A DNA stretch of 64,000 nucleotides from positions 1,573,421 to 1,637,420 of the forward strand of contig NW_004797275.1 of NCBI RefSeq assembly GCF_000002075.1. Direction: 5' to 3'. Numbering within the stretch: the first letter of the stretch is position 1; each line of letters begins with the position of its first letter. The position numbers and the translations under genes are program-made. The notes under the pieces are model-generated. The model did not search any database and was not told the origin of the DNA. It was given only the letters and a program-made list of their open reading frames with translations. The DNA comes from Aplysia californica. Taxonomy: Eukaryota. Below, piece after piece: positions 36,801 through 43,100 of this stretch.

Positions 36801-39800
36801 TCCTGCAAAGTTTTACTTTCTAGACTAAGAACAATTGGACAGCTTGCCAAAGATAAGCGAAATTTAAACTTAGTCAGAGTCTGCTTTGATTTTCTCCAGC
36901 TTGTTGTAATCTAACTATTATAAGGAAAGGGAGGTTACACTGTAACCCTTGTCATCAATGCAATGAAATATTATAAAAGCTGCAGTGTCAGCATTGTTAA
37001 ATAATAATGCAAGAGGTTCAGCCAATGAGGGTTTCATTTGCTGTTCAAGTTACTAACAACAGCTCTTTTTGTTGTTATAACCATTCTGGTGGTCATAAAA
37101 CAAAAATAAGATGAGGGAATAAAAAAAAGACTTACTTTCCAAAGGGGCACAAATTACACTCTTTGCAGATTCCTCAAATTCAGAGTATCCTTTCCTGAGA
37201 AGACAGAAAAGTAAGACAGCACTATAAAAACTTGCTTAAAAAACATAATGCGTAAGTCACAGAATTATTAACTACACCAGGTCAATGTCAGATTTAAACG
37301 TGTCTAATTCATATTAATGTTGCATTAAATTCTTTTGATGCATAAACTGACTATCTAAATTAGTAGGATATGACAGATGATTATTCATTAACTACCTGTA
37401 CCTCAACAACTGAGTAAGGCATAATTTCCATCTCAATATAAACCAGAGGAAAACAATGGGTTCCTCACAGAGGGTAGAAATAAGGGAAAAACAGGCATTA
37501 AATAGAAAGTCTCTCGAAGTCCAACCCCTCGTCCACGCCGTGGGAGATGGAAACAAGACAAAGTAGGGGATAGCTGGGTCTGGGTGAAGTACGGTGTGAC
37601 TTTATGTCACTGAGGCGTTACGCTAGCCGTGAAGGCCGACCCGGGTCACCCCGAAACGTTGCTGGCCAACGGGGCTCTGGTGAAACTGCGACTGGCTTAG
37701 CAGGCCGGCAGTGGATATAAACATTGCTCAAGAAAACATAAGGAGACACAAACGGACTGATCAAAACGGACTAATGGAGAAGCTCTGCACGAAGAGAAAG
37801 AAATAATAAAAAGATGGGAAGAATATTTTCGTCAAGAACTACTAAACCCATCAGGAGTACAGGCACAAACCACACAGTGCCCCTTCACCGCCAACTACCC
37901 ACAGCACTCTGAACCTACCATCCTGGAGAGTGAAGTGAGAGAAGCACTGAAAACTAGTCCAAAGAACAAGGCAGCTGGAGACGATGGCATCACAACCAAA
38001 GCCATCCTTGCATGCGGCGAAACCGGAATACATTGGCTTACAATCATCTTCCAAAAAGCATGGAAAGAAAGAAAAGTGCCAGCAGACTGGCAAAATGCGA
38101 TAGTGGTGCCAATATGGAAGAAAAAGGGCAGCAAGAAAGACTGCAACACCTATAGAGGCATATCTCTTCTCAGCCATGTTGGGAAAATGTATGCAAAAAT
38201 CCTAGAGCGACGTACTCGCGCAAAAACCGAACATCTTCTCAGTGACGCCCAATTTGGCTTTAGAAAAGGAAGAGGGTGCACTGATGCAATCTTCGCACTC
38301 CGACAACTGTGTGAGAGGGCTTTGGAATACGACAAAGATCTCCACCTCGTATTTGTGGATCAACAAAAAGCCTTTGATCGAGTAAATTGAAGCAAGCTAT
38401 GGAAGATCTTAGAGCAGTACGACATCAAGGGACAACTGCTAGACAACATCAGGGCTATCTATGCCAACAGCAGAAGCGCTGTCCGAACTACCAGTGGAAC
38501 ATCGGACTGGTTTCCAGTAACATCCGGAGTGAGACAGGGCTGCAATCTCTCCCCTCTGCTCTTCGTGATCTACATGGACCAGATAACAAAAGAGGCCAAT
38601 CCAGACCCAGAGGCACTCAATGAACTCATGTTTGCAGATGACCTGGCAATGATTAACAACAAGACTCAGCTACAGGAGCATATAAACCAACTAAATGCGA
38701 GCTGCGAAAAATATGGCATGAAGATCAGTATAAGCAAGACCGAAGTCATGACAATTAGCAGGAGACCAGGTAAAGTGGATATCAACATCAATGGATCCCA
38801 ACTAAAACAAAGCAGAGAATTCAAATACCTGGGCAGCATTTTCACAGAAAATGGAAAATTAGATAGAGAGATAGAGACTAGATGCCAGAGAGCCAACGCA
38901 GTCAGCTACCAACTGGGCCCTCTCCTGAAACATCCCAATATCCCCATGAGCACCAAGGCGAAGCTCATCAACGCCATTTTCCTTCCAACGCTCACATATC
39001 AGTGCCAGACATGGACTCTAACAAAAGCCCTAGAGAGGAAACTGGTCACATGCGAGATGAAATGCTTAAGAAGAGCGGTCAACAAAACAAAAAGAGACAG
39101 AATTAAAAATGAAGTCATAAGGGATACCGTGGGAGCAACACCAGTCCTACCACACATTGAAAAACAAAAGGTTAAGTGGTTCGGACACCTCACGCGGATG
39201 CCCTCAAACCATCCAGCTCTGAGAGCATACAACATTAAATATTCTGGATGGAGAGCCAGAGGAAGACCAAGGCGACGATGGAGTGAATCTGTGGCAGACA
39301 CCCTAAAAGATCATGGGATGTCCCTCCTACAGGCCACACGACTTGCTGCAGACAGACACCTGTGTCTCCCCGTGACACCCCAGGGTACAAGCGGAAGACA
39401 AAAAGTAAAGTAAAGTAAATAGAAAGAGAAAGTTGTATATATATATATATATATCTTCGGGTTGTTTTTTTCCAGCATAAACATTACAGCACATGTAATA
39501 AACAATGAAAAAGTTACATGCAAACACAAAAATGGAAAAAAAATATTCTTAACTGCACTAATAAATGTAAACAAATAGTTCTAAATGTTTTACAAAACTG
39601 TTCATATATTACAAGTGAAAAATAACATTCACTCACTGACCATTTATTATGCCACAGGGACAACAGTCAAATTGAGGCTTGAATTGAATGCCCAAACTAA
39701 TGAGAAAGAAGGAGTTTGTTCAGTGATTTTAGGACACAGCCACAATAGAGAGAGTTAGGAAGCTGTTGCATCTGACTTCATTTATTAAGCCTATCTCTCA

Positions 39801-40181: not shown

Positions 40182-43100
40182 TCAAACATGAACGCACACA
40201 AACAGGCCTACAGTCACATGCATAATATTGATGAACAGTAATATAAACAATAATAATTTAAAGCCAGATACATACTCAGTATTCTGATTGTAATTCAATG
40301 TTATTCTGATGCGTGTTCTCTAAAGTCATATGAATGTCACAAAGCAACACTTTGATAGGTTACCTGAGAGCATCAAACAAATCTGTGGTGTATTTGACCT
40401 GCTGTTCATATACAGATCTGTGAAATGCAAGTTCTTCTTTCAGTGCAGCCTTTTCTTTCTCAAGGAGGTGATATCTGTGGTTGCAAGTCCCAATACCAGA
40501 TTGCAGTATATGCACAACTTCATCCTTCTTGCTTCGTGGTAATTGAGGCAAAGCTGCTATAACTCTCTCCACTGGTACTTCTTTGGTTAAGGGCCTCGAC
40601 AAGACAGGCTGCAAAAATACATTATAATGTATGATGATATATAGATTGTAAAGCACACAGAGCTCTCTGTTGAACAGGGATAGGCGATATTCAAATACTT
40701 TTTTCTATCATCATTATTATAATTATGTACGACAGCACAGAGCAAAGCAAGGTATGGGTTAATGACCCTCTTATGCTGAAATGTTATTTAAGGCCCACTA
40801 AGAAACATACTATGTGTCACCATTTGCATTTTATAGAAATATGGAAAGTTAAATTATTAACAACCTGTAATAACCTTTTTTTTTTTAAAACTTCCTAGGT
40901 GGGTGGTTGACAGGTGCTCGCCTGGTGTGGTTTGCTCCTTTTTTCCTATCAAACATCTATCGTCCTTATCACTCCTTCTTTTTTGTATTTGTTACTCTCC
41001 TGTAACATCTGTAATCTTCGGCACCTATACGACCTAATAGAGTTGTAAGTACCGTAAAATACTTACTAAAACAAAAACTTCCAAGCAATGTACATAAACA
41101 GGAAAGCATCTGCCTTTGCACTATAACACTGTACTAACGTATTATTATAGCCATAATCCTGTCCCCGTGGTTTTATGCACCCCGCATAATTTAGGAAAAA
41201 TTGATCATTTTTTGCATAATGTCTGATTATTTTCCTTTAATATTCTTTGTTAAAATTAACAGAATCGCATAATTTTACATTTTTGGGCTCAGTTTGCATA
41301 ATTTCAAAATTTTTCTTGCATAAAATGACGGGGACAGGTAATCATAGTAAAAGAATTTGGTACCTACCCAGGGTGAGCTGGGACATAGTAAGGACAAAGC
41401 CAGAAGGTCATCAGTGGCATCCTTGACCACTAACAAGGATTTCAGAAGCTTTTCCATCAGTCTCTCCTGTTCTGCACAATTCATGCTCCCTCCATGGACA
41501 TGCCCTATATGGAGACTTTGCATCTGCTCATGAACTCCAATGAGCTCCTTGTACACGGTGCATAGCTTAGACTCCAGCTGGGCCTGAGAAAACAGACATT
41601 CAAAAATAAAGTTGTGTAAAAGACCATTTCAACTTTATAAGTTAATATATTTTGAAAGCAAATAAACCAATACTGAAATATAAATGACAGGGGGAAAAGA
41701 CAGACTGAGGTCCATAAGGTGGTAAATGAAAGACTGAGAAAGGGAATGACTTGAAATTACAGTCAAAGATTATGTTGAGAGACATTTTTGGATTTGAAAA
41801 CATGCTGGGGATCTTCAGATATCCGTACGAGACTGATCTGAAATAGGTACAGAAAAATGGGGACTTGTCCAGTTTACCCAGGCAGCACATCCTCAAATCA
41901 TGAAGCTTTTCACTTTTTCAAAGAAAGTGGTTACACAAGTCAAAATAATGTTCTGAAACTTATTTTTGGTCCTGTCGTAGAATTGTTTGGTCTGATCAAT
42001 GTAACATTTTCTGATTTGTCAATAACAGCCCTACAAAACCCCCCAAAAACAGGGACAGCGTGTGAAAAATTAAATCCATGGTATATAAAAAGGGAAAATA
42101 AAGGGGGCTTTCGTCCACGTACGCCCGACATATAAAACTGTAAAAAAAAAGGATATAGATATATATGTGAGGCATCATGGTGAAATCAGGCGCTCATCAA
42201 AACAATGAAATCAAAGAAAACAGCATTTTCCCGCAGGTTTGGATATGCTTCTTATGATCCGGAGAAGGCTGCTTATGATATGGAGAGCAAAAACATAGTA
42301 GTCTAGAACTTCAACTCACTGAAGTTCGACCAAATTTGACAAGGCCTGTACATGTATGCTGGGACTTGCCTGGATGACCTTTGAATAACATTAAGCTGTG
42401 CTATCCCATTGCCTGACACCAAACACTATATACCAAAGGATAGGACATTACCTTCATAAAGCTAGAAGCTCAGTAACAGAGAAGTACATAAATATGATAG
42501 TGCTCATTTCATACAGAGAAAAAAGACAAACAATAGAAGGATAGCAAAGAAGTAAGGCTTCCCCATGACACCCCCAGCCGCCCACACTGTCATCTGTTCA
42601 GAAAACCTGTATCAACAAAGTACATACCACATGCTGCAGATTGAGATAATCCATTCGTCCAAGAGAAATATCCAGTACAGACAACGTCTCCTTTTGTTTT
42701 GCCTTTCCATTAAGAAATGGGTTCAGAAGCAAAAGACTCTTTCCCACTTCTTCTCTGTCACATTTCTGTGAAGCAAAAAGCTTATATTAATATTTGTATT
42801 CAAAATTTCCATGAGCAACTTTAGGGCGAAGTTGGCATTTGGGATACCTTTATCCGTAACAAATCCAAATTCTGTTTCAGTAATTTCAGGATATATTTCA
42901 GTTCTCATTCTTTTCATTAGTACCCCCAGGAGGAATTTAGTAAGATGATTCATGAGACGGATTGTCCTGTGCTGTTCACATTCTGATATTCCAGCTTTTT
43001 GCAGCAATGCTATAAAGATAGATTTTTTCAGATCTTCTGGTACCTGACCTCTACAGTATTGTATATATATGGTGTAAAGTAATGTTGTCACTTCTTTGAA

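Follow-up and report, generated by a model that had tools for sequence, protein, structure and literature searches.

The 5' end of an RTE-like element in the Aplysia californica genome (positions 37509-37674, plus strand) probably adopts a predicted HDV-like ribozyme fold of ~166 nt with a long branched P4, in which C37666 would be likely to cut before G37509. The window, the whole stretch of DNA that was analyzed, comprises 64,000 nt, and the searches covered the 927-Mb A. californica assembly. Window positions are used unless element numbering is given (n equals the window position minus 37508). The predicted fold is almost three times longer than the one first drawn for this site in an earlier note (~166 versus ~61 nt). 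Since RTE-like elements carrying HDV-like ribozymes are already known, the main value of this analysis is the corrected structure. It comprises the following parts:

37509-37674 (to 37678 if P2 extends), plus strand: predicted HDV-like ribozyme, ~166 nt, with the predicted cut 5' of G37509
37509-37515, plus: P1 5' strand, pairing with 37542-37548; the first pair is G.U, the second U-A or C-G depending on the family
37516-37529, plus: J1/2 and P2 5' strand; the P2 strand is 37525-37528, and 37516-37522 pairs in a slipped register
37530-37541, plus: P3 of 2 bp (37530-31/37539-40; C-G or G-C by family) and L3 (37532-38) with U...G; 37529 and 37541 are unpaired or mismatched
37549-37553, plus: GG of P1.1 (partner 37533-34) and AAA linker
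37554-37664, plus: long branched P4, ~110 nt, with base helix 37554-59/37658-64
37566-73/37647-52 and 37576-80/37638-42, plus: inner P4 helices, with a three-way junction at 37590-37631
37665-37670, plus: J4/2, G-C-Y-A-A-N, with predicted catalytic C37666, assigned by comparison with C76 U77 A A G80 of the antigenomic ribozyme
37671-37674, plus: P2 3' strand GGGG, which can pair with C17-Y20

Genomic 5' ends and the copy in the window

Genomic copies of family A, to which the window copy belongs, start at or just after G37509 and have unrelated DNA upstream. The first 232 nt used as query gave 609 candidates in the genome, and the 40 that were scored had 95-100% identity. Among 30 family A loci, 21 had G at position 1 and the remainder were truncated by a few bases; the eight columns before G37509 were mixed, with no common upstream base. 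These flank columns are the real test of the 5' end, since the BLAST query itself began at G37509 (of 40 matches, 21 started at query base 1 and the others no further in than 13 bases). In family B, 5' ends lay at the G in 20 of 30 loci, again after mixed upstream bases, and the sister families all begin at the equivalent G wherever the 5' end is present. The piling of 5' ends at this G, proposed as a check in the earlier note, was thus found. Together with the covariation of P1 and P3 between families, it supports the note's main claim that the fold is HDV-like and that its predicted cut coincides with the first base of the element.

A TSD abutted or overlapped G1 in 9 of the 14 copies with a 3' end (16 were examined, 2 of them without a 3' end in range). 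Two of the other five carried 2 or 10 extra bases, one lay in a TA repeat, and two had no credible TSD. Copies that start at G1 with unrelated upstream DNA are expected if the cut RNA is the template of reverse transcription. The window copy has these features:

37499-37508, plus: left TSD, 10 bp, or 11 counting G37509
37509-39415, plus: family A copy, internally deleted, of an RTE-like non-LTR retrotransposon of ~3.2 kb
37556, plus: private A, against G in 29/30 loci; the predicted effect is a shifted register at the P4 base
37770/37771, plus: junction of a ~1.31-kb internal deletion, found in this copy only, with loss of the endonuclease domain
37771-39413, plus: reverse-transcriptase remnant, interrupted by a stop at 38388-38390
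39400-39415, plus: A-rich (GTAAA)n tail
39416-39425, plus: right TSD

As first described, the left TSD (TAAATAGAAA) ends at 37508, directly before the fold. Its second copy occupies 39416-39425, and because the following G is common to both, the TSD measures 10 or 11 bp. The window copy is ~1.9 kb long, compared with 3203-3231 nt for full family A copies (15 longer stretches compared); the ~1.31 kb missing after element base 262 corresponds to the whole endonuclease region. A replicating subfamily sharing this deletion was rejected, the junction being present once in the genome. Within the ribozyme region, the G>A change at 37556 is the sole difference from family A. With its endonuclease deleted, a stop in the reverse transcriptase and a private P4 change, the window copy is dead and probably without a current role.

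On the minus strand nearby are two stretches that resemble exons (40364-40608 and 41368-41583), both with AG/GT ends and open frames; neither had a Pfam match. The window copy thus probably lies in antisense orientation to a host gene, in which case its ribozyme would be absent from the pre-mRNA of that gene. Independent bipartite deletion derivatives, in which a 5' part of ~240-260 nt is joined to a 3' piece that varies in length, are common in family A (L006, L008, L010, L025 and L026).

Structure of the predicted ribozyme and competing readings

The core of the first drawing was retained: P1 (37509-15/37542-48, G.U first), L3 UCCACGC (37532-38), P1.1 CC/GG and a 2-bp P3. Beyond the core, the earlier note had reduced P4 to an 8-nt linker, giving ~61 nt in total, and had proposed C37559 as the catalytic base and CCCCU/AGGGG (37525-29/37565-69) as P2. 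In the corrected model, 37554-37664 forms a covarying branched P4; thus, C37559, whose partner in the P4 base helix is G37658, and G37566-69 are predicted to be paired and to be neither catalytic nor part of P2. The CAAA at 37559 is present as described, but C37666 is a better candidate for the catalytic base than its C, and the suggested C37559U mutant would probe the wrong base. The AGUA/GAA internal loop of P4 is one that we take to be loop-E-like.

To assess the long model, we used 24 of 152 copies (including, or in addition to, the window copy) picked near each family majority, a choice that inflates pair counts. Across 23 distinct natural copies from six families, 96.0% of 1140 cells were paired and 11 of 50 pairs had two-sided changes; given family kinship and the choice of rows, the two-sided changes correspond to about ten events, not 57. 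None of 500 shuffles reached the score of the model, and slid models were 35-49% paired. Between family majorities, ten pairs changed on both sides: 2-39 in P1, 22-32 in P3, and 47-155, 59-143, 65-139, 72-130, 84-121, 91-99, 92-98 and 107-115 in P4. The change at 59-143 (G-C to A-U) was contributed by family D, itself not a normal retrotransposing family. Furthermore, family E has a P4 base helix shortened on both strands. Paired cells amounted to 93.2% in P1, with the G.U first pair in 20 of 23 copies and a two-sided change at pair 2, and to 97.8% in P3, with a C-G/G-C swap. For P1.1 and P2, pairing is possible and covariation was absent.

The bases expected of an active site are conserved as well. 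Each of the six families has G157, C158, A160, A161 and G163-166 as majority bases, with Y at position 159 and N at 162, and the core positions G1.U40, U24, G29, P1.1, C158, A160 and A161 are retained in the family majorities. At C158, families B-E read CUAA and family A reads CCAA. The antigenomic HDV ribozyme has C76 U77, two adenosines and G80 in the part of PMC3386971 consulted. The order of J4/2 and G163-166 matches this arrangement, which makes C37666 the predicted catalytic base and ~166 nt the predicted length.

We regard the compact form of ~61 nt, with no P4, C37559 as the catalytic base and CCCCU/AGGGG as P2, as very improbable; it might act for no more than a short time during transcription, before the downstream helix forms. 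It is drawable in families A, B and E. Its invariant C51-AAA fits the CRRA descriptor as given in the excerpt of PMC6326823, while family A has CCAA at C158, and silkmoth R2 and abalone have ribozymes without a P4 (PMC3774820, in part). However, the compact P2 was 84.1% paired with no two-sided change and is disrupted in the majority sequences of families C, D and F. Its G run (37566-69) covaries instead with 37649-52 (element bases 141-144; G-C to A-U in family D). The covariation looked for in P1 and P2 was present in P1 and lacking, as two-sided change, in P2. The compact form also needs a 6-nt J4/2. In the folding ensemble, pair 60-142 of the long form had a probability of 0.97-0.99, compared with at most 0.10 for 18-60 of the compact form, and this value was not exceeded even within the first 70 nt. 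Moreover, the compact form needed a repair: the window copy was thought to have lost 3 nt (ACA). CCCCT is present in 30/30 loci and is followed directly by C (29/30) and G (29/30), all 30 loci keep the window spacing from CCCCT to P3/L3, and the repaired consensus motif had no genome match at up to one mismatch. The loss of 3 nt thus did not occur.

The short helices of the long model bear on a second alternative. In a canonical HDV-type ribozyme, P3 consists of three Watson-Crick pairs. The canonical P2 is ~7 bp and unbroken, according to the part of PMC4908430 available. The six families differ from this geometry: P3 has only 2 bp in all of them, with a standard pair at the third position in one of six, and P2, which adjoins P3, has 4 bp plus a bulged extension, with invariant pairs or one-sided changes. 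Neither P2 (17-20/163-166) nor the slipped register (8-14/164-170) showed a two-sided change, and the two were paired in 95.6% or 96.4% of cells. Nested folding favored the slipped helix, with probabilities of 0.92, 0.61 and 0.20 in three copies, and RNAalifold extended it into the P1 strand. Because constructs lacking the P1-P2 spacer (zero-length J1/2) had no activity in the experiments excerpted from PMC4908430, a fully slipped helix may represent an off state.

These properties, the short P3 and P2 and a competing helix that ties up the P1 strand, would also suit a conserved 5' RNA domain that derives from an HDV-like ribozyme, is weak or inactive, and serves as a protein-binding, protective or translation signal, with an internal promoter starting at G1 setting the 5' end. 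Such a promoter has a parallel in L1Tc, where the same 77 nt act as promoter and ribozyme in the portion of PMC3383444 at hand, and the common bipartite derivatives imply cis roles of the 5' part. Against this, the family majorities retain every catalytic-core position, and a DNA promoter would have no need of the covariation seen in P1 and P3. We therefore consider the inactive domain unlikely and retain the ribozyme as the preferred reading.

A resemblance arising from chance pairing in a GC-rich UTR has a negligible probability in our judgment, even though several general measures were unremarkable. Folding energy was unexceptional (z from 0.19 to 1.04 for three 5' pieces, -0.38 for 37560-37700 and -1.67 for P4). 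Rfam gave no relevant match in the window or in six family loci; across the genome, the best RF01788 score was 17.9 bits, against a cut-off of 38, and lay at another site. A degenerate core pattern barring A at P1 position 37 had no match. A descriptor of the long form, written post hoc after the sequence had been seen, matched once in the window (37509, C37666) and not at all on either strand of 30 dinucleotide-matched random 64-kb sequences. In addition, chance would not account for covariation in P1, P3 and at least seven P4 positions, or for the coincidence of the fold with the first base of the element. Two further structures were discarded: a GUCC(11-14)/GGAC(48-51) pairing, one side of which is broken in family C, and a hammerhead reading of the three-way junction, dropped by eye for want of a hammerhead core and an Rfam match.

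HDV-like ribozymes are known at the 5' ends of RTE, R2, R4, baggins and L1Tc/Ingi retrotransposons (excerpts of PMC6765202 and PMC5786205). As far as these accounts go, the predicted ribozyme shares with them the exact 5' end, the nested double-pseudoknot core, the G.U first pair, the proposed release from a host cotranscript and the lack of an upstream AUG. It differs in the ~110-nt P4 of family A with its loop-E-like loop and three-way junction, in the 2-bp P3 and in a P2 that is 4 bp or bulged. Family A had no Rfam match over cut-off, drz-agam-2-2 included. With the antigenomic HDV ribozyme, in so far as PMC3386971 describes it, the fold shares a 7-nt L3 with a U...G reverse pair, a C-U-A-A-N J4/2 (families B-E) and a 4-bp run closing P2; in contrast, the first P3 pair is not Watson-Crick here, P4 is far longer and branched, and family A has CCAA. 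Large L4 loops occur in R2 ribozymes (PMC3774820, in part), and HDV variants with an E-loop in P4 (PMC13635239, in part) resemble the AGUA/GAA-type loop, a comparison made by description only. The silkmoth R2 and abalone P4-less, minimal and theta ribozymes, as portrayed in excerpts of PMC3774820 and PMC10879173, match the form first drawn, whereas family A differs by its long covarying P4. In the literature consulted, we found no description of family A or of a branched P4 with a 2-bp P3, although published lists of RTE ribozymes may already include the family.

The element, its sister families and a proposed mechanism

Full copies contain one frame with endonuclease-like and reverse-transcriptase domains (RVT_1, E 2.5e-31) and are without ORF1; Exo_endo_phos was detected at E 4.4e-4, below the Pfam cut-off. 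The endonuclease begins near nt 314, and open frames measuring 1010 and 1022 aa were found. TSDs are mostly 7-14 bp and the tail is (GTAAA)n; a microsatellite-like 3' tail and TSDs of 7-15 bp are described for the RTE clade in the excerpt of PMC6007223. The nearest named proteins were unclassified (Branchiostoma, Elysia and Amphiura, 51-62%), with no labelled RTE reference among the matches. By size, single frame, tail and TSD length, family A fits the RTE clade and is here called RTE-like.

Family B, found by a protein search with a distant homolog, has ~69% DNA identity to family A in the ORF. Families C to F came from searches with loose ends, patterns and DNA, giving six families in all, five of them sisters to A; the six are related, with a mean column identity of 87%. 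The family majorities rest on 152 copies (A 42, B 30, C 16, D 23, E 26 and F 15), after exclusion of copies that fell short of query base 165 or contained N. Metagenome scans by protein and DNA pattern gave no match, and no ribozyme from other species was recovered. Between ribozyme and ORF, a stretch that can form a hairpin (37685-37710) is conserved in families A-C, E and F. The N-terminus of homolog P0013 resembles this part of the UTR in translation, a hint of the same ribozyme 3' end in another organism.

We propose that the element would be transcribed by read-through from host promoters, as the biology of RTE, R2 and L1Tc suggests. In the transcript, P1, P3 and P4, whose pairing has the support of covariation, would form, and P1.1 and P2 can pair. 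C37666 would act as general acid together with Mg2+, leaving a 5'-OH at G1, and the cut RNA starting at G1 would serve as the template for reverse transcription, a route described for RTE, R2 and L1Tc in the excerpts of PMC6765202 and PMC5786205. The folded 5' end may then protect the uncapped RNA and aid the start of translation. Consistent with the translation role proposed for such ribozymes, an in-frame AUG upstream of the endonuclease was absent from 13 of the 14 copies in which its start could be placed (1 of 15 copies had no anchor).

Predicted family D ribozymes in repeated cassettes

Family D consists of 5' fragments (about nt 1-210, no ORF) that follow a T-run in a multi-kb unit repeated in clusters. 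The cassettes contain the following features:

L134, L135, L187-L211 and L219-L244 (e.g., L196:1501-1710), plus: family D loci
L196:919-1166, plus: conserved ~250-nt noncoding block with several hairpins, 95 candidates in the genome
L213:2132-2737, also L217 and L218, plus: acidic, Val/Glu-rich repetitive open frame with repeated V-I-V-V-S-D-D motifs and a basic cluster
L253:2752-3216 and L254:1739-2152, plus: related short open frames beginning M-G-N-F-S-S, without a Pfam match, which precede the conserved block in other cassettes
L247:2218-2437 and L249:3534-3753 (both plus), and L250-L252: second, unrelated HDV-like fold in other cassette arrays, read by eye

Among the 23 family D copies, mean pairwise identity was 0.93-0.98 in the ribozyme, compared with 0.80-0.85 in the aligned 200 nt upstream. 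When cassettes were picked by the ~250-nt upstream block, the ribozyme was present in each of the 26 closest, and four further loci were without it; median BLAST identities, gaps included and the query copy excluded, were 96% for the ribozyme, 76% for the spacer and 95% for the block. These figures come from nonindependent copies in which AT-rich spacers and an inserted repeat inflate flank divergence and gene conversion is possible; indeed, part of the spacer is a separate high-copy repeat. Still, the pattern suggests that the family D ribozyme is reused by the host.

The ~250-nt block is common to family D and more distant cassettes, carries frame-breaking indels and is followed 280-540 nt downstream by a short conserved motif. 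Rfam gave no relevant match in the cassette loci or the block. At three loci, 2.3 kb separate the family D ribozyme from the acidic open frame, which lies upstream on the same strand; the repeated motifs of this frame are presumably SUMO-interaction-like, and Pfam and Atlas returned no usable match for it. The M-G-N-F-S-S start of the short frames is what we assume to be myristoylation-like. In the more distant cassettes, the second HDV-like fold lies 0.65-1.5 kb downstream of the same block. It has a 3-bp P3, a 7-bp P2 with a compensatory C-G/U-A swap, a C/A-U/G P1.1 and a C-G first pair.

One tentative interpretation of this arrangement is that the family D ribozyme was domesticated: it would be under selection behind a multicopy host gene and would cut after the U-run to end the transcript, related cassettes would use the unrelated HDV-like ribozyme at that place, and ribozymes would thus be interchangeable 3'-end modules. 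A model is the exapted CPEB3 ribozyme, which is HDV-like and kept inside host transcription units in the account excerpted from PMC6765202. Unlike CPEB3 as described there, the candidate family D ribozyme sits in a multicopy cassette and is visibly derived from an RTE-like 5' end.

The branched P4, the 2-bp P3 and the six natural families provide a testable structure with ready-made compensatory variants. Since Rfam missed the long-P4 forms here, retroelement ribozymes are likely undercounted. If the domestication of family D is true, host genes would have taken over a ribozyme that processes transposon 5' ends and put it to use at their 3' ends, and different ribozymes would occupy the same slot. 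In the part of PMC13635239 consulted, no biological role is ascribed to cellular HDV-like ribozymes in the cases studied; family D would give them one, and it would then matter more than the corrected structure.
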